A stretch of 64,000 bases of DNA from Nemertoderma westbladi (GCA_032718475.1 JAUCBJ010001244.1:1-64000), one strand, 5' to 3'. Shown: positions 26,658 to 61,282, counted from the first letter of the stretch. Numbers and translations: made by a program. Notes: generated by a model from the sequence alone, not told the origin.

Positions 26658-26865
26658 CCAATGTTGGAATATTGTTGTTCTAAATCAAAGCATCAATGTT
26701 CTCCAATGGAATTATTATTCTGAAATAAAATTCAATAAAATTAAACAACAAAATTAAATATTCTGAAATCGGGTTGGTACTGGTCAAACGACTCAGAGGA
26801 AATATGGCTTAGTATATTTCAATCCATTCCGGCAACTCTATCAGGTAGAGCCATGTTCGATAAGG

Positions 26866-28709
26866 GGATGTAGGTCAATTCGGTCCCGGACAATTCGGTC
26901 CCGGACAATTCGGTCCGGACAATTCGGTCCCAGACAATTCGGTCCCGGACAATTCGGTCCCAAAACACTAAATAAATGGGACCGAATTGTCCGGGACAGA
27001 ATTGTCCAGGACCAAATTGTCCTAGGACCGAATTGTCCTAGGACCGAATTGTTCGGGACCGAATTGTCCGGGACCGAATTGTCCAGTTCCTGATAGCAAC
27101 TTTTTAGTGCTTTTTTGATATTGGTGAATGTTCTAGAAAATTAGTAGAGATATTTGTTATGGTAGCTAGTGTTATTTACTTGCTAGAACTTTTTGAAATT
27201 TTAAAAATACTGTATTTTTTTTTATTTTTGTTATTGGTAGTGTTCGAGAACATTATTATATATTATTTATTAAGGTGTAGCTAGTGTTTTTTTTTTACTA
27301 GCTAGCATTTCCTTAAAATTATAAAAATACCTGTGAAAACATTGATATTTCAGAATTAGGCCTAAACTGTTGCTGATTATATTAATTACCAACAATATTG
27401 ATATTGATGAATAAATATGAATGAGATCCAGCTATTATCTACAGTACAGGCCACCAGAAAACGCAGATTTGTACAATTGTGAACACATTTTATCAAATGT
27501 GTACCAGTGTAATGTAATGTTGTTGAACGGGACAATTGAATATAATTGAACATAATTGAATTGGCAACAACCAAAATTTTTTCGCCAAAGGATACAATTG
27601 AATACTTTTGAAACGCTTAGTACTCTGGAAACTCTCTGTAGTTTGCCGCGAACTGTCACTCACTGCAGCTGGAAATGCGATAAGGATTTTGTTTACCTTT
27701 ATAGTGTGCGGTTAATGGTGTCTAGTAGGCAGGCCTATAGTTAGTGATGTTAAGGCATCTTCTGGTGTTACTCTGTGCCCTCTCGGTGTCAGACTAATGG
27801 CGCGACATCTCCCTGCACTGAATTAATTATTCAATGGTCTAGGCTCCTCCATCCATATATCCATCGACTCCCATACACTCCATGATCCTCCATGTGGTCT
27901 TGTATGTAGTTCTCTCTCTACCAATACAGCCCATGTCCGCAATGTTACGCCCTGGGGGCTCTCTCATCTACCTGATATCAGACATACAGGCGCACCACAC
28001 AATAAGCCTTTGTCGGTCCCAGCAAGTTAGCCAGCCTCCTGCTGTGTGATCTAGAAGATAACTCGCCATAACCTGCCAATCAGGTTACTTGAACAAATGT
28101 GTTCACATGTGATCACATTGGATGAAATCTGCTTTTTCTGGTGGCCTGTACTGTAGGATAATAATTTAGGCTTGTTATCCAACCAACAACACATACAGTA
28201 TACTTACGCAATATATAAAAAAAAAATCAGTTTTAAAAATAACCATTTTAAATACATACTATTACTAGCTAGTAAATAATTAACAAGCTCCATAAAAACA
28301 CCATAGCTACCATAAATAATAATGTTAACAAAAAAAGTAAATTTTTTTATTTAAAAAAAAAAAAAATACTAGCTAGCAAAAAAAAATACTAGCTACCATA
28401 TAATAATATATATTAAGGTTCTAGAACATTCACCATTATATAGTACCAATTAAATTTGGTCCCGGACAAATTGGTCCCGGACAATTCGGTCCCGGATAAT
28501 TCGGTCCCGGACAATTCGGTCCCGGACAATTCGGTCCCATTAATATGCATGTTTTGGGACCGAATTGTCCTAGTCAGTATCCGGACAATTCGGTCCCGGA
28601 CAATTCGGTCCCAAAACATAAAATTAATGGGACCGAATTGTCCGGGACCGAATTGTCCGGGACCAAATTGTCTGGACCGAATTGTACGGGACCGAATTGT
28701 CCTGCTTCC
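26866..28709. mobile_element. Foldback-type TIR element with 8-bp TSD (Merlin- or MULE-like)
   Basis: CGATAAGG at 26858-26865 and 28710-28717; termini GGATGTAGG / CCTGCTTCC; 15-bp GGTCCCGGACAATTC arrays at both ends; inner inverted matches 27121/28420 and 27439/28125. Confidence 0.85.
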
Positions 28710-29665: not shown

Positions 29666-31089
29666 TATATAATTTAATATAATTACCATTTTACCGATGT
29701 CCAATTTTAACATATGTTCAATTTTACCGTATGTAAATAGTTTTTATTATATTACAATATAATATAATATTCTGTAATTTATGAAGGACCTACGTTTTTT
29801 ATAATAGTTTATCAATAGTTAATAATAGTTTATATCAAATAGTTTATAATAGTTAATATATATATTATTATAATAGTATAACAATTTATCATATTTCATT
29901 TTATGAAATATGATTTGTAACATCTCTATTTTCGATTTACACCTGTTTTTTGTTGTTTGCAATTAGATGGAATTCATATAAAATAATTTAGAAATTTCAA
30001 ATTGTAAATTGATTGTTTGAATCCTTTTTTTTGCGCAGTAGGAGTTTTTTGGAACATACTTATATACAGTACTAATTTATTAATATTCATTAATATATTA
30101 AAGTTTAAGTGTTTCTGAGAATATTTGCATTAATCGAATAGTTCATATGATACGTTAAATTCCAATAGGAATATTTTTTTACTTGCTTTAAATTGGCGGA
30201 TGTAAATGAAAAGCAGTTCGATTTTTCTTTATATTCTGTTATAATAATGTCATTTAACTTCAATCCGTCATCAGCATTTGCCACAAAATTCCCAGTGAAA
30301 TTCCATTAAAATTACAGCCTTCTATAAACAAAAATCACATAAAAATAAATCATAACATTTCTTTTTTTAAATAACATTAAAGTTAAGTTTGCCTTACTCA
30401 AGGTTTCTATTAAATAATAAGTTAGCATTTTGGTACAATGGACAGGGAATATCTTATATGCCCATCTAATGCTACTCATAGGGTTCATTCAGATAGATAT
30501 ATAAGACATATAAGAACTTCCTGAACTAGAATTATAAGAACTAAAGAACTTCCCGAACGAAAAAATAGTACAGTGTCCTTTTATAAAAGCGCATTGCTTC
30601 CCAGGAGAGGAAAGGGAACATTATATAAGATATTGTGAATACAGGAATAGGGACTTTCTTTTTGAGACAAGAAAGCGAAAGAAAAAGAAGTATAAATAGA
30701 AGAGCTACAATGGTCAGCGGCATTGGGAGAAGAAGTGTGGGATTAAACAATGTTTAGTTTGATTTAGGGCTGATTGATTGATGTCTAGTGTGCAAGTTTT
30801 GGTATTGTATTTATATTGTAGTGCGAGCAACAGAACCAAAATAACTGTTAACTGTAGGGGAGATATATAATAATGCCCTGTTAGTATGTAAAGTTGTGCA
30901 TGCATGTATGAACTAGAATAATTCGAACTGACATTTAATATATCATCACATAAATCCCTTATGACATAGACACTAACTTAGAAGCATGAAAACCACATAT
31001 GTAGTGTATTAATATCCTGAAGACATTAGTTCAATGTTATTATCTTTTCCTACTCTGTTCTGAATAATATTTGTATTATGTCTACCATT

Positions 31090-31803
31090 AGAGGTTTTTG
31101 TGTTGTTTTTTTGCCCGAAATCTTGTAACTTAAGTACAATAGATCCAATATATTTATACCAGCGTGTTATTTCTAGAACTGATAAATTTACATATTTGGG
31201 TCATATTATACACGAATCACGTGATGATGATCTTGACATTAAGAAACAAATAGGTAGTATGTACGCCCGTACAAATACGTTGTTTAGAAAATTTAGTACC
31301 TGTACCGTTGCAGTGAAAGTTCGTTTATTTCTAGCGTTTATAACTCCACTATATTGTAATGCTCTATGGTCACGTAGGAACTATTCATCTGTTGTCTATA
31401 ATCGGTTAAGGGTAGCATACAATAATGCAGCAAGAAAGCTATTTTTCATCTCTGTAGGTTCTAGTATGTCATATTTCTCTGGTTGCAATAATATTCCGTG
31501 CTTCATTCATTTACATTTCAAATCAATTCAATCAATTTCGTAGGATAAAATGCTCCAGTAATTATATTGTAAATGCTGTATATCTTTACACCGCGTTGCA
31601 TAGTTCTAGAATTTTTGAAATGTGCAATTCCGAAAATCTGTTAATTTAGCGAATTATTAGTATTACTAAGTACATACATACATAATCAATTGCATACTTA
31701 ATTATTGTAGGTAGACGATATGGGCTGATTGTGCGATTATAATATAATATTATATTTTCCATATGTTGCCTGCGGTAAATAAATAAATAAATAAATAAAT
31801 AAA
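31090..31803 (+). pseudogene. 5'-truncated LINE: RT C-terminus and (TAAA)n tail
   Basis: FTYLGHII...DDDLDIKKQ...KVRLF...LYCNALW...AYNNAARKLF; (taaa)n at ~31776-31803. Confidence 0.8.
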
Positions 31804-31899
31804 TTAGAGCCATTATAGAATAGACAATGTAGTTAGTGATGCATGCCAGAGATTGTGTAGGTAATAACATTATATAAAGGCAAGATAGAAAAAGGTAGG

Positions 31900-32777
31900 A
31901 GTAGTAGGGTCTTGGCCGGCTCTGCGACAGTTGGACCCCACTGACACCCATTGGGTGTCATATGACACCCAATTATCACCCTATGGGTGTCATTGGGTGT
32001 CATTGGCGCCAGACTGTCTGGGTGACACCTCTCAATTAGGCTAATTAGACCCTAATTGACAGGTGTCATCAATTAATTAGTACAATTAAACCCTAACAGG
32101 TGTCATATGACTCCTAATTAGGGTTTAATTGATTATCCTAATTAATCAGACTGATTAGCGCCCTGACACACAATGGGTCGTCAGTGTTGTCCAACTGTCG
32201 CAGAGCCGGCTCAAGAGGGTGTCATAAGTGACACCGCAGCTCTTTTATTCATTAATACTTATTTATATTTAATTTTAATTATTTGCATTTTATTTTATTC
32301 GTATTTAATTCTAAATTAATTATTCATTTGTACTTTATGGGTATACAGCTCCCTTACTGGTAACTAATTACTCCAGACAGCTTTATCGTTGACCTTCGAC
32401 CCCCCAATTAGCTTTAACCAAGCAACAGCATATTAATGATAGTTGTATCCAAGCGCCCCTGCCCCCCACCCCGTGACAGCTCTGATTACTAATTACTCTT
32501 ACATATATCCAACCGCCTGCAGTTCCATAGTCTGCCGCTAGAGGGCGTATTATCTGAAAATTAACATCTTCTCTAACTTTGTTATTTTCAATTTAACTAT
32601 TTATTTGTACCTAATTTTAATTAATTATTTGTATTCTATTTGACTTTATTTATTCATTTGTACTTTATTTTAAATTAATTAATTGTATTACTTTTATTTT
32701 ATATATTGATTTCTATTTTTAGATTAATTTGGTTTTATATTACCAATGAGATCACTATGACATAATGTCTATTTTTA
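31900..32777 (+). repeat. Left terminal inverted repeat
   Basis: Reverse complement of 45193-46096 apart from a few substitutions and small indels. Confidence 0.95.
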
Positions 32778-33264
32778 ACTTTATAATGGCTATGGTATAC
32801 GGCTCCCTACTGGCAACTATCAACTACGTTCATCGGCGGGGGGCCCCTCCTCTGCCATCGCTTTTCATTAGTAGATACAACAGGCAGTGAATCTATACGT
32901 ATACCCCCCCAGGCAATTATAAATGAGTGGTCCCATCTGTTAGCAGCCCCTTTGTCTTCATTATTCAATGGCGCCAGGCGGCCTTGACTACAGCAAATCC
33001 CTATGTCGCCCAAGGCTAATGCTCAAGCGGCCCTCCATTGTTCTCGGCATAGCCGGCGTCGCTTTGCCCCTTTCCTATATCCAGGCAGCCCCTATCATAA
33101 CAATGAAGCGCCACTAATCACGCATTCCTCTCTACTAATCCCTTTCCTTTGCACCAGACCTGCTTCTGTTATACAGCCAACTCAACATAATTAGTCAAGA
33201 TGCCTACGGGGTTTCTAATATAGAATCAACAGGAGAAGTTGCCTTGGTAACCGCTTTTGCGCGA

Positions 33265-33360
33265 ACAGCCAATCAGCGGGCTTCATTTCTGCTGCTGCGC
33301 TCTGATTGGCCCATTTAAGAGACAAGGGCCTCCCTTACTAACCGAATTGCTATTTAATAC
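33265..33360 (+). promoter_or_regulatory. Putative Pol II promoter of the left transcription unit
   Basis: CCAATCAG (~33269) and inverted CTGATTGG (~33302) boxes, then TATTTAA at ~33351. Confidence 0.4.
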
Positions 33361-33470
33361 GTCCCCACTAATATATTAGGTCATTATTTCAATTGCAATT
33401 TACAATTAACATCATTTACCATTATTTTGTTTTCGAATTTAATATTATTTATTTAAGAATATTTATTTGT

Positions 33471-34280
33471 CATTTCGCCGCGTTATCACTCATCGTCGAC
33501 AACAAACTTTCCGCGTATCCGCCGCGTAATATTTCAATATTTCTAATTTCCGATACCATTCCGTTCTATCGGTTGATAAACTCTCTCCTCGTCCACGTCA
33601 ACCAACTTCCTCATCGCCACCGAACTTCCAAACTTCTTCTTTCCGTGAATATCTACTAACACCGTAAGTAAAATCTGCCTTCCATCTAGCTATACTTTCG
33701 ACGCCGCTAGCAAACAATTTACATTTAATGTCTACCGATACAACAGTATTGCAGTAGGCTCATTATTAATTACTGTCAGACTGCGGTGGTACCGATAGCC
33801 TAAACCGTGATCGAAGCATTCGATCAATAGGCTTACATCCGCCTATCTGCTTACAGTATTTTTTATCTTTTTACAAATAATCATCTTATTTTTCTAGTAT
33901 CATTTCGCCGCGCTATCGCTCATCGTCGACAACAAACTTTCCACATATCCGCCGCGTAATATTCCATTATTTCTAATTTCCGTTACCATTCCGTTCTATC
34001 GATTAATAAATTCTCTCGTCGTCCACGTCAACCAACTTCCTCACGAACATCCAAACTTCTTCTTTCCGTGAATATTTACTAACACCGTAAGTAAAATCTG
34101 CCTTCCCTTCCACCATCTGACGGTACTATCGATGCCGCTAGCAAACAATTTACATTTAATGTCTACCGGTACAACAGTATTGCAGTAGGCTCATTATTAA
34201 TTACTGTCAGACTGCGGTGATACCGATAGCCTAAACCGTGATCGAAGCATTCGATCAATAGGCCTACATCTGTCTATCTG
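33471..34280 (+). repeat. 430-bp-period tandem duplication containing putative non-coding leader exons
   Basis: Units start at 33471 and 33901; each has an ACC|GTAAGT donor (33664, 34087); acceptors TTTTTCTAG end at 33897 and 34802. Confidence 0.75.
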
Positions 34281-34809
34281 CCTGTCTACCTGACTATCGG
34301 TACCGCATCATTCGAGTTAGCCTAATGCCACTGTAGTAACGATATAGACCCTATTGAACAACAATGAATACTGCAGTTTTCATTATATATCCTACTGACT
34401 AACTGAGATCTCACACAGCGATTAGCTAAGCCTATCGTTGATTTCTATTGGTTAACGCTACCGGTACGTCTGACTTGTAGCAGACTATATCACTAGCACT
34501 ACTGCACTGACTGACTGCTGTTTATAGACCCTCTTTCCACGAATAATAACTGCCATCGCTATTGTGTCTTGGTTATCGCCACTATCTGACCGCTGGTACA
34601 CTAACACTACTGCACTAGGCACTACCGACGGCGACGGTCTGCTTTATGTTTCACTGTCTGATTGCTACAATACAGCAATAGGCCTAACTATACAAACACA
34701 GTATTGTTGCCTAGTAACCAATTAATACCTACTGTTTTACTTTATTTTTAGCAAGTATACAGTATTTTTTATTTTTTACAAATAATCAACCTATTTTTCT
34801 AGATTCAAG

Positions 34810-37800
34810 ATGCCAAGATCAACAAATAAAGTCAGCTGCCCCATCTGCGACAAAGAGACACGGAGTGATCATTTATCTCGCCACATTAAAACTCATTTCG
34901 TGCAATATAGGTGCGACTGCTGTCCGACTTGGTCTTCGGAAAAGAAGACGCTGGTTGGCCATCTTGTTTCGTGTCCTCAGGGGGGAACAGGATTTAGTTA
35001 CGTAAACGAGCCAGCCGATTGCCGCTGCGGGGATTCGCTCAGCCTGTCATCCTTTTCTGAGCATGAATGCTACACTCGACTTTTTTCGCGGAAACGCAAA
35101 ACTCCGACTACCTCCCACTCATCCCCCATCAACTCTACTCCAGAACAAGTCGGCGGCGGCGGCTCCAATAACGAACCTTCAACTTCGCGAGATTCTATTT
35201 CCCCAAACAATCCATTTCAACCACCCTCCAACGGAAGCGCACATGGACGACTGTTTACCTATAACAACGACCTCGCAGAAACAAGACTCGACGCAGAATT
35301 AACATTAAACGAAAATTTTCCACACATTCAAGAACATGTTAGTAGCCATTTACGTAGTGCCATGGGAACTTTTTTAAGAGTCTGGCTTACAATCAACATC
35401 GTAATGGAGCGTGAAACCAGCGAGGGTTTTCAAATTGAATCCTTCTGTTTTAAATCTAGCGGTAACAATAATCAAATTCTGAATAATAGCGACTTTAATA
35501 ACTGGTTTTCCGGCGCCGTCAATCGTATCGATCAACTGTTAAGTGTGTTTCTCTGCCTCGGCTCAGGTTGGCGCATAATAGCCATCGAGCGAATAACTAT
35601 TGAGATTGCGCGTTCCCAACGCAACCCCTATTTAAAGGGTCAAGGCTTCAATAATTCTAAATTATTATTAAATAAAAAATGTACCGTAAGCGTAGACTGC
35701 CCGCTGGGGGAATGCTTTAAATACGCAGTATTGGCCGCCGCAAATTATAAGAAAATTGATAGAAAACAAAATAATATTAGTAGAATTTCAACGTTTACTC
35801 CTTTCCTAAACATGTTTGATTTTTCGAATTTAAGTTTTCCGGTGGACAGAGTAACTGGTATTCCCCAGTTTCTGAAAGCCAACCCTAAATACTGCATAAA
35901 CCTTCTTTATTGGAGTAATACGGAAGAACTCTCCATTCTAAGTCAACCAGATAGCGCGCACTGTTCCGGTAAAACTGTACTAAACTTATTATTTATCGAA
36001 GCCACAAGCAAAAACCCCGCCCACTACGTAGCCATTACTAACATAGATAGATTAATAAATACAAAAGCTACTTCTACCGGCAACAAGACGCACTGCGAAC
36101 GCTGTCTCAGAGCCTTTTACACTGTCAAATCATTGGAAGAACATCGAGAGCGTTGCTATACGGGTAAACGCCAACTCGAGTATATGCCCGAAAATCTCTT
36201 GGTTAAATTTGATAGGTACGATAAGACTCTATCCCCGCCTTTCTGTATATACGCCGACATTGAAACTATTCTAGAACCTACAAACAATATTAAACTCCCA
36301 CAGAAACATATAGCTAGCGCGGCAGCCTTTTATACAGTACCAAATCAGAAATTAATTAACCCTCCTAAAACAGATGTTCAAATTTTCCGCGACGATGGCA
36401 GTAACCACGTAATGCGCGACTTTCTAACCGCTATGGAAAGTCATTGTAGGGAGTTATACGATTGGTCCATTTCTAGTACAAACACACACGCCCCCATGCA
36501 ACTCACTACTAGCCAGCAAACTGACTTTAATAACGCTACACAATGCTACGTCTGCAACTGTAATTTAACCCCCGATTCGCATAATTTAAACCTCAATGAC
36601 AATCTCAGCACCAAAGTCCGCGATCATGATCATTATAGCGGGGAGTATCGAGGGGCTGCTTGCGTCAGCTGCAACAGGAAACTTTCCCTAAAACGGAATA
36701 ATTTTTATATTATATTTCATAACTTGAGGAAATTCGATATGCATTTACTACTAAAAGAAGGAATGACCGATAGTTCTAGAACACACTGGAAAATGTCCGT
36801 AATACCAAAAAACACCGAAACTTATATTCACCTTAAAGTTAGCTTCCCAATCGATCCGAGTACACCAACAGCCAACGCTAAAGAAAGTATCTCCATTAAT
36901 TTTCTAGATTCCTATCAGTTTATGACTGCCAGCCTAGATAATCTTAGTAGCTATCTCACTAAAAATAACAGTAACCTAGCAACAGCCATACCCCATACAC
37001 TAGCTCAAATGACCCAACTCTATCCCAACATTAGCGATAACACAATAAAAAACAAGGGCGTATTCCCATATTCCTACATTCAAAATATTTCAAACCTATA
37101 CGAAACTACACTCCCCCCATTAGAAAGCTTCTATAATGATCTCAAATTGGAACAATGTAGCGCAGAAAACTATCAGCGCGCGCTTACTACTTGGGATGAA
37201 TTAAACTGTCTAACAATCTTCGACTATATGATTGGCTATTTGGTTCTAGATGTTACCCTATTGGCTGATACTTTCGAGCAGTTCCGATCCCTCTGTCTTA
37301 CTAATTATGGACTCGAGCCCGTAATGTACTTCACTGCCCCTGGATTAACTTACGACGCAGCGCTGAAATTCACGCAATCAGAAATTCAATTACTATCAGA
37401 CGCTTCCATCTACTCGGACTTTGAAACAAATATTAGGGGTGGTCTAGTATTCTTGAATACACATTCCGTAGACGCAAATATCCCCGATAAACCCGACTAT
37501 GACTCCAGTCTCCCCGAGAAATATCTAATTCCCATCGATGCGAATAACCTTTACGGCTGCGCCCTGAGCCAGAAACTTCCCCACGCTAATATTAAACTCG
37601 TAACTACCCCCATAGACCTAGCTACAGTAGACGCGAGTGGGGATACTGGTTATTATTGCATAGTTGATCTACATTACCCGAAAGAAATTCATGATTTGAC
37701 CGCCGATCTGCCTCTAGGAGCGGAGAAGATGTCAGTCCCTAAATCCTTTCTTAGCGAATACATGGAAGATCTTTGGGAGCATTACAATCTCACCGATACG

Positions 37801-38865
37801 GCTAGCTGTAGACCATACAACGATACCTGTACTAAGCTACTACTACATCAGTTTAATAAGGTTGAATACGGTATCCATATTAAGCTACTTCAACTCTATT
37901 TGAAGCTCGGTCTTAAACTTACACAAGTACATAGGGTCTACTCTTTCTCACAAAAATATATTTTCAAGGACTACATTAGTTTTAATACAAATAAAAGACA
38001 GTCGGCAAATAACCCATTCGAGGTCCTATTTTATAAGTTGATGAACAATGCCTTGTATGGGAAATGCCTCCAAAAGGTTAGAGACCGCGTTTCTTTCAGG
38101 TTATGCAATAGCGACGAACAATGCGATTTGCTCTTAGCCAAGCCCAATCACGAATCGTTTGTTGTATTTACCCCCAACTTGAGTGGTCATACTTTCACTA
38201 AAGAGGCTGTTTGCCTAAATCAGGGCGTGTTCATCGGTTGCACTATACTAGATCTATCTAAGCTACAGATGTACGACCTATTTTACAACAAACTGAAGCC
38301 TCTAGAACAAAAACTGGATTGCCAGATTCGCTGTCTAGCCGGTGACACGGATTCTCTAATGCTAAGCGTAACTAATACACCACAGCTAACCTTTCTACGG
38401 GCAATGTTTGAGGGTGGTTTCCTAGATACTTCCAACTACAGTACAACACATCCACTCTATACCATTAAACACAAAGCGGCTCTCGGCTTCGTAAAAGATG
38501 AGAGCTGCGGTTTGCAGTATAAACAGTGGGTTTTCCTTAAACCAAAGGTCTACAGTTTTCACTCCTATGATGCCCCAATCAAGAAAACCGCCAAAGGTGT
38601 ATCTAGATCGGTTGTCGCTAAGCAACTAACACACGAGGATTATGCAGACTGTTTTGTAAACGAGGCAATGCTCTTCCGCTATAACTCTACCTTCACTTCT
38701 AGAAAGCATCAAATTTTTACTGGTCATGTCTATAAGAAGGCACTAACGCTCTGGGATACGAAATCATATTGGAGTAGTAAATATAGCAGCAAACCATATG
38801 GACACTATAGCACTAAGCTTGTTAGACCGGCGAAACGAGTAGTAATCCCCCCTACTAGAATTTAA
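34810..38865 (+). CDS. Protein-primed family B DNA polymerase (Polinton pPolB), 1351 aa, with N-terminal C2H2 fingers and an endonuclease VII-like insert
   Basis: Exo motifs YADIET, FHNLRKFD, YLVLDV; pol motifs DANNLYG, KLMNNALYGK, GDTDS, KGV; CPIC..HIKTH finger; CYVC...RDHDHYSGEYRGAACVSCN. Uninterrupted ORF. Confidence 0.96.
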   Translation: MPRSTNKVSCPICDKETRSDHLSRHIKTHFVQYRCDCCPTWSSEKKTLVGHLVSCPQGGTGFSYVNEPADCRCGDSLSLSSFSEHECYTRLFSRKRKTPTTSHSSPINSTPEQVGGGGSNNEPSTSRDSISPNNPFQPPSNGSAHGRLFTYNNDLAETRLDAELTLNENFPHIQEHVSSHLRSAMGTFLRVWLTINIVMERETSEGFQIESFCFKSSGNNNQILNNSDFNNWFSGAVNRIDQLLSVFLCLGSGWRIIAIERITIEIARSQRNPYLKGQGFNNSKLLLNKKCTVSVDCPLGECFKYAVLAAANYKKIDRKQNNISRISTFTPFLNMFDFSNLSFPVDRVTGIPQFLKANPKYCINLLYWSNTEELSILSQPDSAHCSGKTVLNLLFIEATSKNPAHYVAITNIDRLINTKATSTGNKTHCERCLRAFYTVKSLEEHRERCYTGKRQLEYMPENLLVKFDRYDKTLSPPFCIYADIETILEPTNNIKLPQKHIASAAAFYTVPNQKLINPPKTDVQIFRDDGSNHVMRDFLTAMESHCRELYDWSISSTNTHAPMQLTTSQQTDFNNATQCYVCNCNLTPDSHNLNLNDNLSTKVRDHDHYSGEYRGAACVSCNRKLSLKRNNFYIIFHNLRKFDMHLLLKEGMTDSSRTHWKMSVIPKNTETYIHLKVSFPIDPSTPTANAKESISINFLDSYQFMTASLDNLSSYLTKNNSNLATAIPHTLAQMTQLYPNISDNTIKNKGVFPYSYIQNISNLYETTLPPLESFYNDLKLEQCSAENYQRALTTWDELNCLTIFDYMIGYLVLDVTLLADTFEQFRSLCLTNYGLEPVMYFTAPGLTYDAALKFTQSEIQLLSDASIYSDFETNIRGGLVFLNTHSVDANIPDKPDYDSSLPEKYLIPIDANNLYGCALSQKLPHANIKLVTTPIDLATVDASGDTGYYCIVDLHYPKEIHDLTADLPLGAEKMSVPKSFLSEYMEDLWEHYNLTDTASCRPYNDTCTKLLLHQFNKVEYGIHIKLLQLYLKLGLKLTQVHRVYSFSQKYIFKDYISFNTNKRQSANNPFEVLFYKLMNNALYGKCLQKVRDRVSFRLCNSDEQCDLLLAKPNHESFVVFTPNLSGHTFTKEAVCLNQGVFIGCTILDLSKLQMYDLFYNKLKPLEQKLDCQIRCLAGDTDSLMLSVTNTPQLTFLRAMFEGGFLDTSNYSTTHPLYTIKHKAALGFVKDESCGLQYKQWVFLKPKVYSFHSYDAPIKKTAKGVSRSVVAKQLTHEDYADCFVNEAMLFRYNSTFTSRKHQIFTGHVYKKALTLWDTKSYWSSKYSSKPYGHYSTKLVRPAKRVVIPPTRI

Positions 38866-38879
38866 TTTTATTTTTCTAG

Positions 38880-39395
38880 AATAAGAAATTGAACAACAAA
38901 ATAGAAATAACCAATAAACAGTTTACCGGAAAAAACATTGCCAAATTTGAACTAGAGAAAATTTCACAGCAAATTACAGGTCAAAGTTGCTTAAAACCAA
39001 ACATGTTTATCTACAAAGGTGACGATTCAACTATAATGCTATTTCCCAGCGGCGCAGTAACAATTGTAGGCCTTTGCAATAATTTAGCTAGTGAATTGCT
39101 TTATTTAAAACAGACTATCGGGATGCAATTACAAAATTTGAAACTTAATACCGAAACACGAACTATTATTTTTCCTAGTGTTAATTTTAAATTATTAATG
39201 AAAAAATGTGGACATCACACAATTAATAATAAAGCAATATTTATTAGCTATACCCCCGAATTATTTTGTGCGATTAGAATATATATAGGATGTGCATATT
39301 TCAGTGTATTTCATAGTAATAAAATCGTTTCCATGTGTCCAGCCGGTGAATTCCCTGAATCATTATCTATTTTACAAACTTTATTATTAAATTAG
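38880..39395 (+). CDS. Divergent TATA-binding-protein-like protein (two TBP repeats); 5' end probably spliced
   Basis: STIMLFPSGAVTIVG ~ TTALIFSSGKMVCTG; SYTPELFCAI ~ SYEPELFPGL; FSVFHSNKIV ~ LLIFVSGKVV; ~170 aa fits the TBP core; follows acceptor TTTTTCTAG (ends 38879). Confidence 0.8.
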   Translation, partial: NKKLNNKIEITNKQFTGKNIAKFELEKISQQITGQSCLKPNMFIYKGDDSTIMLFPSGAVTIVGLCNNLASELLYLKQTIGMQLQNLKLNTETRTIIFPSVNFKLLMKKCGHHTINNKAIFISYTPELFCAIRIYIGCAYFSVFHSNKIVSMCPAGEFPESLSILQTLLLN

Positions 39396-39439
39396 TTTAT
39401 TTACTATGGTATACATGAAAGTTTACTATATTATTTATT

Positions 39440-40440
39440 TTGTGTTGGTTTTTATTTTTCCGTGAGTAGGGTTTGAATCCGTGACCATCCGTGTTACCTA
39501 CTTTTTATAATTGCATTAGTAGGACTCAAACCCTGGTTTTTCCTATTTTGTGTTGGATTTATAATTGACGCGAGTAGGGATTGAACCCGTGACCTTCTGT
39601 TTTTCCTAATTTATGTTTAGTTTAGTTACTCTAGTTATTCTATGTTTACTTTTTATATTTTCATGATTAGTATTCAAACCCTGGTTTAACTTATTTCGAG
39701 TTGGATTTATAATGGTCGCGAGTAGGGATTGAACCTATGACCTCCTGTTTATTTTCCATAAAACGGGATACGAGTAGGGATTGAGCCCGTGACCTTCTGT
39801 TTTTCCTATTTTATGTTTAGTTTAGGTACTCTAGTTATTCTATGTTTAACTTATTTTGTGTTGGTTTTATATTGGTCGCGAGTAGGGATTGAACCCGTGA
39901 CCATCTGTTTATCCTATTTTGTGTTTACTTTTTATATTTTTCTATAAAACGGGATACGAGAAGGGGTCGAACATGTGACCACCTGTTTATCCTATTTTAT
40001 GTTTAGTTTAGGTACTCTAGTTATTCTATGTTTAACTTATTTTGTGTTGGTTTTATATTGGTCGCGAGTAGGGATTGAACCCGTAACAATCTGTTTATCC
40101 TATTTTGTGTTTAGTTTAGTTACTCTAGTTATTCTATGTTTACTTTTTATATTTTCATGATTAGGATTCGAACCCTGGTTTAACTTATTTCGTGTTGGAT
40201 TTATAATGGTCGCGAGTAGGGATTGAACCTATGACCTCCTGTTTATTTTCCATAAAACGGGATACGAGTAGGGATTGAGCCCGTGACCTTCTGTTTTTCC
40301 TATTTTGTGTTTAGTTTAGGTACTCTAGTTATTCTATGTTTACTTTTTATATTTTTTCATAAAACGGACACGAGTAGGGATTGAACCTACAGTATGACCA
40401 TCTGTTTATCCTATTTTATGTTTAGTTTAGTTACTCTATG
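39440..40440 (-). repeat. Composite tandem array of ~13 tRNA T-arm/B-box-like motifs
   Basis: Minus-strand units GGTCACGGGTTCAATCCCTACTCGCGACCA and CCAGGGTTCGAATCCTAA embedded in A-rich spacers. Confidence 0.85.
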
Positions 40441-43151
40441 TTAAAGTGAATTTTCACATTATATTTGTGTTAAATTATAAATTTATGTTGCAATTATTAT
40501 TTATATTATAAAAAACAGAAATATTCGAGTTATATTGCATTATATATTTTATATTGAAGTGGAATACTTTAGATGTTGGGGGACTCTGGTTTGCGAGGGA
40601 TATTTGAATGGTGAGTATAACTATCCTTGAGAGCTAGTGCAACGCTATCTCACTATGGATGGGCTTTACCACTGTACTCGCATCTGCTCTCTCATTGGCT
40701 GCTCGATGCCTCCGATTAAGGGTCTAAGACCTTCAAGCTGATTATTTGCTTAGTTTTCTAATTAGAAGGTCGTGAGTTTGGACCCTAGAAGAGCATTATT
40801 CTTTTTCCTAGCTCTTGGTTAACTCTAGCATATACTCTAGCTTCGACTCTCCCAGCTATAGTGATAGTATGCAACCTTGGGAGTTAATGTGAGTAAAGAC
40901 CAAGAGATTAGACTTCAGGCTCCCTCTATTGGTTCATTCTTCTTAACTTTATAAAATAACTCAACCCGTATTTAAAGTTTTAAAAATTATGACTTAGTCG
41001 ACTAATTTTCCAAAGTATATTATAAAAACATATAATTTCTTGAATAGATAGACCTAATAGTAATAAATAATGTGGGGGTAAATACATTTATAATTCTAAT
41101 ATAATTATTAAGGATAAATAGTCCCAATACTAATATAATTATGTAATAGTAAGCAAAATTTTTATGCGCAACCATCAGAGATTATTTGGATATAAAAGAT
41201 CACACAGCAGGAGGCTAACTTGCTGGGATCGTGTGTCGCTATGTCTTATATCGGGTGGATGAGAGAGCCCCCTCCGGCGCAACATTGTGAACATGGGCTA
41301 TATTGCTAGAGAGAGAACTACATATAAGACCATGGCCGGCCCTCATGCAGATTTAGCGGCGCCAAGGCTAACGCGGAAAAAATAAAAAGTAAACACAAAA
41401 TAGGATATACAGATTGTCATAGATTCGATTCCCTACCCCCGATCAGAGTCATTATGATCCTCCCCCGATAATTATAGAATATTTTATAGGCCGGTAGTAT
41501 TGGGGTTATTATGTGACTCATGAAAATAAATCTTAAATACAATACAAATGCTCCATCTGGGTAAAAGTGGATGCAATGTATTTACAAATCGAGTGTGGAT
41601 CAGGATAGTTTTCGTTAAGGTTTCACCTTGGTGAAGTGGAAGCATTGTATTCACATTTCGAGTACCATTTTTATTGAAACTATGGGGCATTTTATATTAG
41701 CCGATTTTTCAAAATTTGTAAAGTTTTGAGGGTTTTTATGAAAAATATAGGGATTTAGGGATTATCATTCAAATTGACTACGAAGAAGGCATAGGGATCA
41801 TTAATGGTGTGCTGAGACTCAGAAATTTTCAGGAAATTTAAATTTTTGCCCTCGCTTCGTGGAAAATATAAAAAGTAAACACAAAATAGGATATACAGAT
41901 TGTCATAGATTCGATTCCCCACCTCGATCGGGGTCATTATGACCCTCCCCCCCGATATTTATACAACATTTTATAGCCCGGTAGTATTATGATTAAAGCT
42001 ACTAACCTAAAACATAACAAAGTGCAATTATCCTATCTGTTCCAACTCGGTGTCACTAGTTTAGATAATATACTATAATAATAGTGATAGCAGATGCTTT
42101 TAATTTCGCGATGAAATAATATCAGCAAACGAGATATAGTGAATACATCATAGATAGAATTTTAAATTTTGCAGTTGCAAGGAGTGATAACCCTTAGGTG
42201 AAAGCTAAATTTGCTCTACTTTAATCAAATGGGGCATTAAAGCTACGAGTATATTTTCCTCTACATCCTCCCTCGAACTTACACAAATCTGGGCAAAAGG
42301 CAGTTGAAAGGCTATCATTTCCCATCATATGCGGTCCTCCCTTTAATGTTTCATTGTTCTATTCATAGTCGCCTTTAAGAATTTCTCGGGAAAATAAGGA
42401 TGAGGGGCTATCACTTTCAACCCCATGCGGCCCTCCCTTTCATGATTTCATTGAACTATCCATAGTACGAACAATCAAACCAAAGCCTTTGAATATCCTC
42501 GCGGCTTATCAGCGGCGCCATGGCTAACGGCTTAATATTAACAGTGAAGCATCTAAAAGACAGAGTGTCTATGATAGGACAGAACAGCGTACTTACAGCC
42601 TAGAGGTGGTCGCCCTGAAAACTTTGCTCGCCATCAATACATACAAAGCATCGCTTGATGGATAGAGTAATAGGGTGGATATTTTCATTTTGGTGAATAT
42701 AATTTATAGCATTAATCACGAAAATCGCTAAATAATATATTTTAATTAAAATCAGCTCTGATAAACAACTTGCATATCGAGTTTGTAAAGAATTCATAGG
42801 GATTGGCTGTTTATTTAGGGGTTAACATGCAAATTGATTACGAAGAAGCAGTAGGGGTCATTAATGGTATGCTGAGACTCACTTACTTCATGGCTCGCTC
42901 TCATAGAATAGATTAACTAGTAGAGAAAAATGAAAAATAACCGGTTAAACATCTTATATTTTTTAAACAATATGGGGAAACAAGAATAAATAATTTACCG
43001 ACAACATCAATATTAAATAATATAACAACAGATAAATAATTTACCAACAACATTGAAAATAAATAATATAAGAACATCAACAATAACAAAAGATATAATC
43101 AGAACAGTTTTTAATAAATAGAGACTGTTTATATTAATAGGGTTGCTGGTC

Positions 43152-44843
43152 TCAGAGAATATCTGGTTTAACCCTTTTAGGGTCCGATACTATTAATGGT
43201 TGCGATAATTTTCTCTTTAATAGTTTATTGAGATAACCTTTTCTTGGGGGGTGAGATAGATTAAGGTGTGTTTGCTGCGGGAGAAATATGCCTTCTCTGA
43301 GAGAACGTTTTAGTAACTCGAAAAGGCGCGCGATGGTAAAGTCGTTGGATAGGGTGATAGTGTTGGTATTTTTCGTATTGGTGAATATAATTTCTGCTGG
43401 TTTGTTCTCGATATGAATGTAAGGACTGAGATAGTAGTGAGAGTTGGGTGGGTTGGTTATATTTATCGCGAGAAAATCGCTGCCCCTAATATTGAGACCG
43501 TTGGTGAACTGAAAAGTGGAATTCTCTTCGTCTTTCATTAAAATGGGCCAGATACCAACATATTTTTCGGATTTGAACTTATAGATAAAGGCTGCGATAC
43601 TGCTATTTATGAGATAGCGCTGGTGATTGGGGATTGTAATCTTCTTCGGTTTGAAAGCAAATTGTATAGCCATAGCCTTGAATCTGATTAGAGCCTCGCG
43701 CGCTTGAATTGTGTTAGCTATAGTAAAGGATTCGTTAAATTTTCTCTCGGTTATCTGTAAATCAATTTCTGAATCGCTGATACAACTTTGTATCGATATT
43801 CGCTCGGAAATGTTGTCTTTGTATACGTTAAGTTCATCGTAGCAGACACATTCACTATCCTCGACGGTTGAATCGAACCATTTCAATTCGCCGACCTCGG
43901 TTGGTGTAAGAAGAATCATGCCCCTAGAAGAAACAATAGCCTTTCCATCGTCAACCTCGTAGCCATTGGTGATCGCTAAATTGCGCTCGTTCCGAATATT
44001 TGTAACAAACCCAAAAGTGCAATAGTCAAAAGCAACCCAATTTCCCGGTTTTAGGACAAGGTGAGTAGTAGGATTAATAAAAGGGCGACAGATGTTTACA
44101 TATTGTTGAAATAAATTGGCGCAGGTGACGGAAAATGTGATCCATGAACTGTTTACAGTGTCTTCCAGCTTTATTAACTCGAGTGGATTCACTGGGTTAA
44201 TACTTCCATAGGTGCCAACTCTATAATTGAATCCAAAGTAATAGGAGACTTTATTGGCGAAAAAGCATGTGAGCTCATTCAATTTCTCGCCGAAAGTGAG
44301 AACATCCTTGTCGAAAAGTTTAAAGAAACGAGTCTCCTCTTCCTCGGTCGGAGTCGACGAGTTCCAGATGAGAAGAAGAATCGAGTTTGCGATACTATGA
44401 AAATCAAATAAGCGATCATCGGAGAAGAAGGAGGTTACGAGGGTGGTTAAACCCAGTAGACGATTTGCCACATCTTGGTTGATGTTTTCTCGAATAAAAT
44501 CGACTATACTAGTTGGAATCGTAAACGTCTCGGGCGAAGTAGTTAGATTGAACGTGATTTTGTTGTCCATTTTTAAAAGTTTGAAACCGTGGTTGGAGGA
44601 ATGAAGTTTATTATCGTCGAGGGTTTGATATTGTCCATCGTGAAGTTCGTAGCAGGCGCGGAAAATAAAGTGCGCGTAGTTTGCCGGAATCGGGATGGGT
44701 TGGTTTAAGGTTGTATTTATCGTTAACGGGAAGAGTTTGTTCGCCGGATCGAAATATAGACCAAACGAGTTGTCTTGTAGCATAAACTGATTTTCGTTGC
44801 AAACCAGATCGTTGCTTGAATAGCTGATTTCTGAATGTGCCAT
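43152..44843 (-). CDS. 563-aa orphan protein of the element, basic NLS-like C-terminus
   Basis: Long intact ATG-initiated ORF in AT-rich DNA; ends KLLKRKL...PKRVKP; no family motif recognised. Confidence 0.85.
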   Translation of the reverse strand: MAHSEISYSSNDLVCNENQFMLQDNSFGLYFDPANKLFPLTINTTLNQPIPIPANYAHFIFRACYELHDGQYQTLDDNKLHSSNHGFKLLKMDNKITFNLTTSPETFTIPTSIVDFIRENINQDVANRLLGLTTLVTSFFSDDRLFDFHSIANSILLLIWNSSTPTEEEETRFFKLFDKDVLTFGEKLNELTCFFANKVSYYFGFNYRVGTYGSINPVNPLELIKLEDTVNSSWITFSVTCANLFQQYVNICRPFINPTTHLVLKPGNWVAFDYCTFGFVTNIRNERNLAITNGYEVDDGKAIVSSRGMILLTPTEVGELKWFDSTVEDSECVCYDELNVYKDNISERISIQSCISDSEIDLQITERKFNESFTIANTIQAREALIRFKAMAIQFAFKPKKITIPNHQRYLINSSIAAFIYKFKSEKYVGIWPILMKDEENSTFQFTNGLNIRGSDFLAINITNPPNSHYYLSPYIHIENKPAEIIFTNTKNTNTITLSNDFTIARLFELLKRSLREGIFLPQQTHLNLSHPPRKGYLNKLLKRKLSQPLIVSDPKRVKPDIL

Positions 44844-44959
44844 CGTGATTGTGTATCGGTAACTCGTTTAGGAAATAAAAATAAATAAATACTTTTACGA
44901 AAATAATTAAAACTTTTCAGGAAAACAAAGAGACAATGATTGGGAATGTGGTGAACGGG

Positions 44960-45062
44960 GGCTATTATAGAGGGGGCTAGAATGGGTTAGCCAATCAGGG
45001 AACAGGAGGGAGAAAAGACTGTATAATTAAACCAATCAGAGAGCAGCTTTGATGACGTCACA
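44960..45062 (-). promoter_or_regulatory. Putative Pol II promoter for the 563-aa ORF
   Basis: CRE-like TGACGTCA (45053-45060), two CCAATCAG boxes (~44991, ~45032), TATAATAG on the minus strand at ~44962-44969. Confidence 0.5.
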
Positions 45063-45192
45063 TCAGGCGAGATAATGATTGCCCAATGTTATTCAATGGT
45101 AGACAGAATGGCGCCATTGAATAACGAAGACAAAGGGGCCGCGAGAGGAAAGATTATAAAGTTAACGATAAGGGATCTATAAACCATAGAGC

Positions 45193-46096
45193 TAAAAATA
45201 GACATTATGTCATAGTGATCTCATTGGTAATATAAAACCAAATTAATCTAAAAATAGAAATCAATATATAAAATAAAAGTAATACAATTAATTAATTTAA
45301 AATAAAGTACAAATGAATAAATAAAGTCAAATAGAATACAAATAATTAATTAAAATTAGGTACAAATAAATAGTTAAATTGAAAATAACAAAGTTAGAGA
45401 AGATGTTAATTTTCAGATAATACGCCCTCTAGCGGCAGACTATGGAACTGCAGGCGGTTGGATATATGTAAGAGTAATTAGTAATCAGAGCTGTCACGGG
45501 GTGGGGGCAGGGGCGCTTGGATACAACTATCATTAATATGCTGTTGCTTGGTTAAAGCTAATTGGGGGGTCAAAGGTCAAAGGTCAACGATAAAGCTGTC
45601 TGGATATAGATAAGAGTAATTAGTTACCAGTAAGGGAGCTGTATACCCATAAAGTACAAATGAATAATTAATTTAGAATTAAATACGAATAAAATAAAAT
45701 GCAAGTAATTAATTAAAATTAAATATAAATAAATAGATATTAATGAATAAAAGAGCTGCGGTGTCACTTATGACACCCTCTTGAGCCGGCTCTGCGACAG
45801 TTGGACAACACTGATTGACCCATTGTGTGTCAGGGCGCTAATCAGTCTGATTAATTAGGATAATCAATTAAACCCTAATTAGGAGTCATATGACACCTGT
45901 TAGGGTTTAATTGTACTAATTAATTGATGACACCTGTCAATTAGGGTCTAATTAGCCTAATTGAGAGGTGTCACCCAGACAGTCTGGCGCCAATGACACC
46001 CAATGACACCCATAGGGTGATAATTGGGTGTCATATGACACCCAATGGGTGTCAGTGGGGTCCAACTGTCGCAGAGCCGGCCAAGACCCTACTACT
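45193..46096 (-). repeat. Right terminal inverted repeat
   Basis: Reverse complement of 31900-32777. Confidence 0.95.
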
Positions 46097-46460
46097 GGTA
46101 GGAAAGAGAAACATTTAGAGAAACATTAAAACCTTAATAATAATCTTAATAAATAACCCTAATACAAATAAACTTTATTTTATAACTCCAGAATAACCTT
46201 TACATTTGGTGACCCAGACTGTTGCACTTGCATCTTTCTAATTTAATTAATTTCTGAACTTTCTCTGATTATTACACCTCCAATATAAAAACATGGCAGA
46301 AGATGGAGATCCACCACAGACACCAATCAAAGATGATCACAGAGGAGACGTAAAATTTTCTATATAAATGGAATGGCATATCATATTAACCGACAATTAC
46401 CCAATCACCCCCAATATATTGCTATACTATCATTTATTGCTATCTATACATTGCAATGTC
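46097..46460 (+). mobile_element. 3' part of an LTR, PBS and decayed gag start of a Gypsy-like element interrupted by the Polinton
   Basis: AATAAA-rich stretch ending TTACA (46204), then TGGTGACCC PBS-like sequence and ATG at 46293; candidate LTR start TGTAG with TATAAA at ~31856-31899. Confidence 0.5.
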
Positions 46461-47248
46461 TCAATCGGTCCATGTTTGCAGCCGTCTGCGCATCCACGTA
46501 ATCAGAATCATGGGTTCATCTCATCCAGCTATAGACTCTTCGAGTTTCTTGCCTATAATGATTGCAGTTTTGATTGTAACTTTGGCCTGCATCCAGCAGT
46601 TGCTCGAGTTCACTTTCAGCTGTGATGAGACATTGGGAGAAGAATCTCTGTATCATTGTTATAATGTTTGGAGGCAACGATCTGTGTGTGAGAAACAGAT
46701 TTTGTTATCACCAAATTGAAGGCAATGATTACAGAATATTCATCCAATGAGGCCTCCTCCGATTTATGGGCACAAATCGTCCCGCGGTCAATGCACCTGA
46801 AGAGAATACCTGTGGACCCCGATTTTGATTCGCGGCGTGTGGCTACAAACAGCAGGATGGTGGTGTGGCTGAGGTAATACGAATATGGCCGCATCATAGC
46901 CATGAAAGGTGCTCTATGCCATCGGCTGCAGGGAGCCCAATTCTAGCCGATCCCAATTAAATGTCTTAACTTTTCAATTTCGTAGAAGATAGACTTCATG
47001 ATTCTCTACAAGCAACCAAAATTTCAGCTCTGGAAAATGAGACGTTCCGGAGAAATTTAACATTTTATAAAAACCACACAATCTGTCGTAGCTGACGTCA
47101 GACTGCATGATTTTTCACCAAACCTTACAAATTTTCTAAACTTTCCCTCTACTACCTACCTACTAAGTTTGGTTCAATTTCGAATTAGCGATGCTGAGAA
47201 ATTCGCATTTTTGAATCGGACAGTGAGCCAGAAGAAGTTTCAATAATT

Positions 47249-48170
47249 GTGGATAATATTGTAGAACCATCGTATTGCTATAAAGAAGGTACTACAAAGG
47301 GGAATCTACAGAGGGAGGGGTACTATCAAAGGTTCAGTGTGGATAGTTCCCCTGAACTCTTACGATGGAAATCATCTTTAGAGCAGCAGCAGAAGACATC
47401 AAAAAAATGTATAATAGATCAGTTGTATAAGGTCTCAAGAATGGCCTATCAAATACAGAAGGCCCAAAACAACGTTGAAATGGGTTTCATGGAAGAGTCT
47501 TTGGCTGACTTTGACATGCTACAGTCAATATTTGCAGATATGCACAAAGAATGTGGCATGAAAGGGTCAGCCATAGACTCTATCATTGAAGTGATCATTT
47601 CATAATTCAAGTTTCGGCTTAAGGAGACAGGATCCAATCGGACCTCTTTACTGCAGTCTGATAGTTTTAATCACACCCTGAAAGCCATCAGGAGATACCA
47701 CTCCAATGGGATATTAGTATGGGAAGCTATAGAATCCCAAGCGAGGGAGATAGACTTCCTTCAGACAATTTCATGATATAAAATCTGCAGATGCCTTAGA
47801 AGTGATAAATAACAAGGACATTCGTGATACAGTACAGAAGCATTGCTTGAGTGCCGGTTATATATGCAGGAATGTAAGTATGTCATGTCCTCGTTGTAAG
47901 ATACATGATGTGTCTTATATGTATTGGTGAGCAGCAGAGGCCAAGTGTGGCTGGCTGCATGAAACTCTCTGCGTTTCAACGATCAACACATAAAGCCTTT
48001 GTTTCCCCCATCAAACCAACATCTAATACTTGTGGCAAATCACAAAACAAATACATCATCGCATGCAGGTGTTGTACTTGATGCAGATACGTTTAGTATG
48101 ATTGAATCATATATTAAAACTATCAGAAACAAGTGGCCCAAGCAGTGGCAAACCCCAATGGCCAATATAA
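47249..48170 (+). pseudogene. Decayed tyrosine-recombinase-like (Crypton-like) coding fragment
   Basis: QQRPSVAGCMKL and LVANHKTNTSSHAGVVL...IESYIKTIR resemble the R and K motifs of eukaryotic transposon YRs; many stops. Confidence 0.45.
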
Positions 48171-51470: not shown

Positions 51471-51593
51471 ATTTAATTATTTTCTTATTTTAATTAAATA
51501 ATTATTTTATATTTTGTGCGTGGGAAGGGCGTCTCGCCCTCATTCCCACCCCCCTCAGTCCAAAACTTTGGACGACTAAAAACTCTCACGTGC

Positions 51594-53650: not shown

Positions 53651-54719
53651 TAAAGTAAACTAATATACTAATAGTCGCAAGTCTTTATATAAAATATACA
53701 TTACTCTAACAATAGAATAATTGTTGTAAAAATAACACAATAAAAATTTATTACTAATATAAATTAATAACTTTTTAATTTTCAGATAAAAATTCATCAG
53801 TTGGAAAATCAAAAACGTATGAATAACGAGCCCAAAAAGAAACGCCGACACGAGAATTATACAAACTACCATCGTTAACAGTATGCCACGATCTGAGGGT
53901 GGAGAAGTTTGAGGCTATACAATACACAAACTCTACATATCAGTTACTAAGTTTGTGCAGTATATAGCGAAATTGGAGAAGGCTATAAAAACGGCTATAT
54001 TTCGGATAGAATTTGAAATATAACAAAAACATTGATTTTTTAAATAATCTATTCCATCCATTATCCCTTTTAGATAAGATCTGGAATGTTTCCATTCTTT
54101 AAACTCCAAATTTTGCGTTTTTTTAACATTTAAAGTATTAATTTAAATAAACTAGATATTTATTAACTTAATCTACGCAACATACTACAATTAAGGGTGA
54201 TGGACCAGCGAAAAATTTGGTTAGTTTTTAAAAATTTAAAGGGTAAATCTAAATACTAAATTTATATTTATTTACGTAGTGTAAACACTACAACAGCCGC
54301 GAGCAATAATTAATTCTCATACATTGCAACCAAATTATGTACCACCATTAAATCTTTCTTTTTTTATACATCATTATAAAAGAAAACAAAAGTACTGCAA
54401 AATAAAATTTTGAAGTAAATTAGACTAAATTACTAGATCTAAATTTGTTGATTAATTATTATATTAAAACAATAATGGGGAACTTTTTTACAAAAACGAT
54501 TTCAACCAATCAAATTTCACATCCCAACGATCATTTTTTCGATCATTTTTTATTTATTCGTACGACTACTAGAACTGGAGATTATACAATTTGAAGATCT
54601 CCGATGACCGATAAGTCTATTCCGTGTAATCCCGCAAAGACCGCAGGTTATTCGAGTCCCGTCTTCATAATAAGATTCTAAAAGAGAAGGAAAAAAAAAG
54701 AAACAAAGACTGCAATTAA

Positions 54720-57700: not shown

Positions 57701-57838
57701 TTTCAAGTTGGTGTTGAGATAGTTCGAAATTGGAATACTAAAGTATATAATGATGATGATGGAGAAGTCAACAATTTCGAGCTGAAAATATGTAAACCAT
57801 CGATCTCTCAGTATATTTTATATGCTCCTATTGCATAA
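54720..57838 (+). pseudogene. Helentron-like RepHel C-terminal half: linker, PIF1 helicase and GIY-YIG nuclease
   Basis: REMGYPEVVH...STLTPEYR; GAPGVGKTT; IFFEEYGMLS; PFGGKLFIGCGD; QFPLHYFCAGTIHGVQGQ; then GFVYML...YIGQT...ARLLAH...PWAL...GFP...FETEW. Several stops and frameshifts. Confidence 0.85.

Positions 57839-61168: not shown

Positions 61169-61282
<114 letters not shown>

Follow-up and report, generated by a model that had tools for sequence, protein, structure and literature searches.

Polintons/Mavericks (adintoviruses) combine a protein-primed family B polymerase (pPolB), which carries an OTU-type region, with (AGT)2 ends, long TIRs, a 6-bp target-site duplication (TSD) and two converging gene arms (PMC8502044, PMC8097293). 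The (AGT)2 ends together with 6-bp TSDs form the Maverick signature (PMC8097293), and intact vertebrate Mavericks range from 12.7 to 24.6 kb (PMC8502044, PMC8097293). Module loss has already been published, both for capsid-less Polintons in Repbase (PMC4028283) and for polB-less Polintons of Pieris (10.1101/2025.02.07.637071), the latter apparently mobilised without one core gene. The losses that these sources report concern MCP, PRO, ATPase or polB, and not integrase and capsids with pPolB kept. Bidnaviruses have a Polinton-derived pPolB, TIRs, no integrase and common segment termini (PMC4061559). Polinton surveys have filtered on pPolB linked to integrase (10.1101/2023.08.22.554363), on eight intact core genes (PMC8097293) or on several hallmark genes (PMC11131425); because surveys filter on pPolB plus integrase, a family that keeps its 4-kb polymerase without integrase or capsid would be missed by design. 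In the literature covered, which included few subscription papers and no Repbase Reports, neither an integrated family retaining pPolB without integrase and capsids nor a bipartite Polinton is described.

Here we describe such an element in a 64,000-nt stretch of Nemertoderma westbladi DNA, the whole of which is called the window. It spans 14,197 bp (31900-46096) and represents a Polinton derivative that exists in many copies, of which this is a young one. It is not a Polinton as defined, because neither an integrase, which together with pPolB defines Polintons, nor the virion genes were found in it. Linear pPolB plasmids of eukaryotes are also capsid-less pPolB replicons with TIRs, but are cytoplasmic or mitochondrial and are not known to be inserted by an integrase, whereas the window element is chromosomal and has a predicted Pol II-type promoter and predicted splice signals. 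Such plasmids are mentioned in PMC11161782 and PMC4061559. At 14.2 kb the element falls within the Maverick size range and shares the pPolB with its OTU-type region, the ends, TIRs, TSD and converging arms, and it resembles the Repbase and Pieris elements in module loss and those of Pieris in apparent mobilisation without a core gene. Unlike Polintons/Mavericks, it has no detectable rve integrase, packaging ATPase, adenain, hexon or penton, and its right arm consists of one orphan gene. It differs from bidnaviruses in that neither an S3H helicase nor a parvoviral capsid was detected in it (the orphan has no Pfam or PDB match), in being integrated with a TSD, and in that its TIRs fold to hairpins, which bidnavirus TIRs do not (PMC4061559).

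A polymorphic insertion with Polinton ends

A preliminary description of the window had reported perfect AGTAGT termini, a 6-bp TSD and near-identical TIRs of about 0.9 kb, and each of these features was borne out. Self-alignment places the left TIR at 31900-32784 (885 bp, plus strand, starting with AGTAGT) and the right TIR at 45186-46096 (911 bp, minus strand, ending with ACTACT), with AGTAGTAGGGTC... read inward from each of the two termini. The repeats are 96.3% identical over 912 columns; their outermost 280 bp are identical and indels are confined to TIR positions 280-562. Comparison of the flanks identified the TSD as GGTAGG, at 31894-31899 and 46097-46102 (both plus strand). The element thus has TIRs with the (AGT)2 or (AG)3 ends, and the 6-bp TSD, by which Polintons and Mavericks are recognised. 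The three uninterrupted ORFs that had been described as converging from the two ends were also confirmed, with pPolB and a TBP-like gene on the plus strand and the orphan on the minus strand.

We compared public contigs from four DNA runs (X1-X4, at most three samples) over 30000-48000. A contig joint from 31893 to 46097 omits 14,203 bases, that is, the element and one copy of the TSD, and because it skips exactly this sequence the element is a genuine, polymorphic insertion. The joint occurs in X2 and X3, two runs of one sample, so that the empty allele is seen in one of at most three samples.

The left arm descends from complete Polintons

The pPolB gene (34810-38865, plus strand) encodes a 1351-aa ORF with 55 protein matches at E<=1e-20. 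Its match to PF03175 is partial (E 2.5e-18, model 4-219 of 468), and Pfam also identified an EndoVII-like insert and a C2H2 finger; the partial match and the insert suggest the divergent Beta PolB class of adintoviruses. In an alignment with 13 homologues all exonuclease and polymerase catalytic motifs are intact, and the protein-primed family B polymerase that marks Polintons and Mavericks is present. Conserved Cys and His motifs probably represent a vOTU domain, an assignment made using PMC11161782. The preliminary description had proposed a pPolB phylogeny, and in a quick tree of 47 rows, which took in 18 pre-selected proteins of the 55, locus ORFs of at least 800 aa and rows with at least 650 aligned residues, the window pPolB groups as a Polinton-type polymerase in an eight-row clade (SH-aLRT 99) with P0001-P0003, P0030 and the loci L015, L017 and L018. 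This placement is less sure because the window pPolB sits on a long private branch (length 1.19).

The TBP-like frame (38880-39395, plus strand) is open for 171 aa, or 130 aa from its first ATG (39003-39395), which lies 41 codons past a splice-acceptor-like site at 38879; the whole frame could be translated only if an exon farther upstream supplied the ATG. Its match to PF00352 is weak (E 0.002), and it matches the TBP-like ORF of L018 at E 2e-7. A model from a 30-row alignment (the window protein and 29 homologues) reached pLDDT 74.5 and is predicted to have the two-repeat saddle fold that defines the TBP family. In a Foldseek search TBP structures took the top ranks, aligned over 160-180 columns with a best E of 4.9e-7, and 44 matches in all had E<=0.001. 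The window protein deviates at several columns that are nearly invariant among viral homologues. Searches of viral_contigs with the TBP alignment, and with pPolB only, confirmed no locus.

The metagenome locus L018 is a complete Polinton in which penton, pPolB, TBP-like and penton genes lie on the same strand and converge on ATPase, integrase, MCP and protease genes from the opposite end. Its MCP, protease and penton genes were assigned from known motifs and from profiles built in this analysis. L018 shares with the window element its pPolB clade, a splice-acceptor-like site 5' of pPolB and a same-strand downstream TBP-like gene, but carries ATPase, integrase, MCP, protease and two pentons and has no homologue of the orphan. 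Because this complete Polinton of the same clade has the same arm in the same orientation, the pPolB-then-TBP arm is, judging by gene order, inherited from complete Polintons, and the right-arm block of virion and integrase genes would be the part that was lost. By the same comparison the TBP-like gene is not peculiar to the window element; the legend of the MELD genome maps (PMC8502044, Fig. 5) likewise mentions a TBP gene.

An orphan gene in place of integrase and virion genes

The right arm holds a 563-aa ORF (43152-44843, minus strand) whose N-terminus contains a DLxCxE motif (L13) and whose C-terminus is basic. Inspection by eye of 44844-45185 (minus strand) revealed a putative Pol II promoter zone with CCAAT boxes, TGACGTCA at 45053 and a TATA-like word. 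Homology searches gave no homologue among 7542 candidates (range 309-986 aa), no match in the atlas, Pfam or PDB, nothing better than E>=0.1 in PHROGs and no match to any ORF of 94 related loci; a single match among 1.84 billion protein representatives (P0056) was rejected as a repeat artefact. A single-sequence fold model was unusable (pLDDT 30.5), and neither a membrane helix nor a Walker A motif was found.

The DLxCxE motif, at residues 12-17, was noticed post hoc; it occurs in 0.3% of 20,000 shuffles (4.9% for the looser LxCxE), and [DEN]LxCxE is present in 1 of 284 locus ORFs. Reading of the sequence identified neither a downstream CK2 site nor CXXC pairs. Adintoviruses carry LxCxE 'Oncoid' genes (PMC8502044). 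The orphan is predicted to be a nuclear host-modulating protein, and our best, tentative guess is that it may bind Rb.

Integrase and virion genes were sought with profiles built from the 94 related loci (integrase from 24 ORFs, ATPase 25, MCP 11, protease 9 and penton 25). None of these five profiles matched in the six frames of the element, and the best profile match in the whole window was an ATPase fragment (iE 0.024) outside it. For the rve integrase of Polintons the best value was iE 2.8 with the 24-ORF profile in six frames, and Pfam was negative. Of 616 locus ORFs compared by tblastn, only pPolB and TBP matched in the element. By comparison, every one of the 20 related loci of >=9 kb has one or more of these genes, and an integrase is present in 16 of them. 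These searches uphold the earlier statement that the element has no recognisable integrase or capsid module, and the profile search (iE, six frames) bears out the lack of obvious decayed remnants at 40.4-43.1 kb: the centre at 40450-43150 is non-coding by ORF scan and profiles, with no virion or integrase remnant detected. The hexon, penton, adenain and packaging ATPase that identify adintoviruses were likewise not found with these profiles, which are shallow (with the one-sequence TBP profile even the true target scored no better than E 1e-4), so that a very divergent capsid could be overlooked; the unusable orphan model is a further limit. A short dispersed-repeat fragment lies at 41197-41332 within the non-coding centre.

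The position and size of the orphan raise the question of whether it is itself an unrecognised structural or integration protein, such as a divergent penton, a single-jelly-roll capsid or a novel recombinase, which would make the element more autonomous. It occupies the position of the L018 virion block, the pentons of the clade are 508-536 aa long, and the pLDDT 30.5 model offers no structure against such a role. On visual inspection its size and the spacing of its motifs had suggested a penton, but the penton HMM gave no match, N- and C-block profiles were matched or beaten by 398 and 1655 of 2000 shuffles, respectively, and hhalign returned a probability of 0.2%. Comparison with two MCPs and an integrase gave scores not above shuffles, there is no Pfam, PDB or credible match among the 1.84 billion proteins, and a standard integrase already accounts for the 6-bp TSD and (AGT)2 ends. 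The preliminary description had named a capsid protein or integrase as the outcome that would overturn its reading; by HMM, block profiles, hhalign and the MCP and integrase comparisons the ORF is not detectably either, and we consider a structural or integration role improbable.

The element belongs to a multi-copy family

In the public contigs all 30 bins over 30000-48000 are covered in X1-X3, and 24 in X4. Single X1 contigs on pPolB and the orphan have depths of 1006-1975, against 37-52 on single-locus contigs. Even the lowest bin within the element (42020-42620) reaches 1251, 1786 and 9676 in X1, X2 and X3, compared with 126-260, 237-618 and 409-1320 in neighbouring bins of the element's flanks, so that at bin resolution the non-coding centre lies far above flank depth. 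Contig depth along the entire element, including its centre, greatly exceeds that of a single locus, and the element is therefore a multi-copy family and not a one-off deletion. Summed contig depth is not copy number and no single contig spans the element; tens of copies with this layout can therefore only be inferred.

Variant copies were also observed. An inversion joint at 38413/43836 (X1, X2 and X3) unites pPolB and orphan DNA in another copy, and a joint from 35643 to 38873 (X2 and X4) marks a shortened derivative minus 3.2 kb of pPolB. Orphan contigs at ~88% identity exist, which indicates that the orphan gene is old in the family. In X2 and X3 the pPolB bins are about as deep as the orphan bins, which speaks against a complete master that shares the polymerase and is abundant, whereas in X1 the pPolB depth is ~1.5-2 times that of the orphan, and some pPolB copies may therefore sit in another gene context.

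The preliminary description had taken diverged relatives at ~6, ~9-10.6 and 60.7 kb as proof of a family. The family stands, on public-contig depth and joints; the relatives within the window lend it little support, being fragments and a truncated TIR without the gene set. Self-comparison showed that those at 5995-10641 (minus strand; 5995-6487, 9056-9559 and 10454-10641) are older fragments, 80-94% identical, of ~0.7 kb of the pPolB 5' part, adjoining or split by an RT-coding insert, and that one 3.07-kb tandem duplication doubles them. The third, at 60668-62475 (plus strand), is a separate truncated TIR copy (60668-61029 and 62440-62475) interrupted by a 1.4-kb insert. We rejected this end as a cargo segment: the ORF part of the insert has the depth of a single locus, and the joints of other copies bridge the insert. 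The 147-aa ORF of the insert was considered as an RNA-virus nucleoprotein, an identity unsupported in Pfam, PDB, PHROGs and the atlas.

Probable replication from its own ends and integration in trans

The element has no detectable integrase, yet its 6-bp TSD is clean and the pattern is repeated in a multi-copy family; this implies that an integrase is needed in trans, as the preliminary description had supposed. We favour, with a probability of about 0.7, a self-replicating Polinton derivative integrated in trans. This figure covers two forms jointly. In the one that we prefer, plausible though short of even odds, the element is a satellite of a non-cognate co-resident Polinton; in the other it depends on a dedicated polymerase-less partner. 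An ancestor would have lost the right-arm block of ATPase, integrase, major capsid, protease and pentons, with the orphan now standing behind the right-end promoter. The pPolB, with its fused terminal protein, would prime at the AGTAGT ends and copy excised linear DNA, and the integrase of the co-resident Polinton would recognise these ends and generate the 6-bp TSD. At the level of a motif, the orphan may be an Rb-binding 'oncoid'-like protein that drives cells towards S phase; at the level of a fold, the TBP-like protein may steer transcription. Ordinary non-autonomous elements lose genes such as the polymerase. Here the 4-kb polymerase is kept intact, which fits self-replication from the element's own ends.

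The form with a dedicated partner would be an animal Polinton split in two: a 14.2-kb replication and regulation segment with pPolB, its own TBP and an Rb-binding orphan, and a segment with integrase, ATPase, protease and capsids, without pPolB, bounded by the same hairpin-forming TIRs. The halves would depend on each other, with the TBP-like protein acting as a switch for the virion genes of the partner, a role that could account for a TBP retained with no virion genes in cis. Five X1 contigs that leave the right TIR inward into other sequence at 45378, and a depth that is greater in TIR bins than in coding bins of X1, X2 and X3, may hint at such a partner, although plain non-coding derivatives or inflated sums could produce the excess depth. 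The polB-less Polintons of Pieris (10.1101/2025.02.07.637071) and the common termini of bidnavirus segments (PMC8502044) favour the idea, but no helper or partner came to light in the sequences covered, the sole other TIR copy in the window is the truncated end with its unrelated insert, and a TIR word had 0 matches in viral_contigs. We regard this split as possible, and as the more speculative form. The element might instead be an ordinary defective derivative, in which the right arm was deleted or replaced, the parent amplifies the product passively, and pPolB and TBP are intact through recency. Concerted loss of morphogenesis genes is known, nine MCP-less Repbase Polintons also being without PRO and ATPase (PMC4028283); deleted and rearranged copies exist in the family, and in X1 the depth of pPolB exceeds that of the orphan. 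Such an origin sits poorly with a centre and an orphan that are themselves multi-copy, the latter with copies at ~88% identity, with an orphan unmatched among the ORFs of the 94 related loci, with a polymerase on a long private branch, and with profiles that found no junction remnant of virion genes; we judge it unlikely.

If self-replication with integration in trans is correct, the modules of a Polinton can come apart and still be complemented in trans, the element is a living model for the route by which Polintons are proposed to have become plasmid-like or segmented replicons, and trans-mobilisation becomes directly checkable within one genome. Were the split form true, the two segments together would make up a bipartite virus-like dsDNA element that integrates, intermediate between Polintons and the segmented pPolB viruses and linear plasmids.

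Terminal hairpin and predicted expression signals

The outer 320 nt of the element contain a subterminal palindrome (31910-32216, assigned to neither strand) that begins 10 nt inside the end and folds, as a single strand, into a long branched hairpin of ~300 nt. Its folding energy is -115.1 kcal/mol; 100 dinucleotide shuffles gave -37.1 +/- 3.9, and none of them fell below -45.5. A similar fold is retained in the diverged end at 60668. The palindrome is a candidate origin or end signal. Terminal palindromes are known in Halocafeteria virophages and PLVs, where their function is untested (10.64898/2026.07.28.741278). These also lie within the TIR and adjoin the TSD, but they are ~52 nt long and belong mostly to non-pPolB elements, whereas that of the window element is ~300 nt, branched and 10 nt inside a pPolB-type end.

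A short block containing TGGCGCCA at 32943-32976 (plus strand) was found by self-comparison to recur, inverted, in the right-arm promoter zone (45109-45142) and is likely to be regulatory. The five TGGCGCCA sites in the element are copies of two sites and are not independent. An E2F/CRE promoter logic was rejected, since the element does not contain TTTSSCGC, the canonical E2F word, and the count of TGACGTCA is not above chance. Between the left TIR and pPolB, a 431-bp tandem duplication (33470-34281, plus strand) has in each unit an ATG-free segment that ends in a GTAAGT donor (33664 and 34087), and these segments are predicted to be spliced leader exons; acceptor-like sites lie upstream of pPolB and of the TBP-like frame. 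The predicted junctions lead from 33663 and 34086 to 34803. A phase-0 donor-like site at 34831, in phase with the acceptor at 38879, would, from its position, let the pPolB and TBP-like products share the pPolB start.

No tRNA genes were found in the element centre or in the B-box-like array described below, and Rfam gave no match at threshold. Repeat analysis identified a degenerate tandem array at 39435-40443 (minus strand) of ten units that resemble a tRNA 3' half (B-box of the GGTTCAATCCC type), several of which end in CCA; inverted copies of the unit occur at 41422 and 41908. The array lies directly 3' of the TBP-like gene.

tRNA-like B-box units beside the TBP-like gene

Downstream of the TBP-like gene, sequence matches identified ten tRNA 3'-half-like units with a B-box at 39435-40443 on the minus strand, and two further units of this kind on the plus strand at 41422 and 41908. 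Several units of the array terminate in CCA; none of the 10 + 2 carries an A-box in register with its B-box. Across the window, 18 matches were observed versus 5.7 expected, with 12 of the 18 inside the array. These units could be landing sites for TFIIIC beside the TBP-like gene.

Variation within the element family

The C-terminus of the orphan protein varies across the family (window 43153-43280, public contigs). In contigs from the public DNA runs X1, X2 and X3, the latter two representing one sample, 126 bases at 43153-43280 are swapped for 31 others, and the mapped public contigs differ from the window copy in the last codon of the ORF. X2 and X4 hold a derivative that lacks most of pPolB (35643-38873) and retains the splice-acceptor-like site preceding the TBP-like frame.

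The subterminal hairpin of the element (31910-32216) is also kept at 60678-60910, within the diverged, truncated TIR copy at 60.7 kb, whose internal deletions have left the fold in place (-63.6, against -25.8 ± 4.0 for mononucleotide shuffles). This copy is interrupted by an insert (61030-62440) carrying a 147-aa open frame at 61586-62029, which is present at single-locus depth. The frame seemed to resemble a negative-strand RNA virus nucleoprotein; this identity was unsupported in Pfam, PDB, PHROGs and the atlas. X2 has a low-depth, diverged contig here, with 49 differences in 457.

Related Polintons and other repeats

Polintons of the element's polymerase clade encode two pentons, which are long (508-536 aa) and have a large insertion in the middle; in the metagenome loci, the regions concerned are 1112-2686 and 8999-10525 of L018 and 4770-7386 of L015. 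Thirty divergent TBP-like proteins (P0057-P0086) are homologous to the Polinton TBP; most derive from short contigs, and genomic context is visible in L018 only.

Elsewhere in the window, Helitron-like pieces occupy 11840-14072 and 51498-57838. Helitron_like_N is matched at 12564-13184, and a 3.2-kb tandem duplication contains PIF1 helicase fragments. Arrays of 15-bp repeats in inverted orientation span 26848-28702 and resemble a foldback or MITE element.
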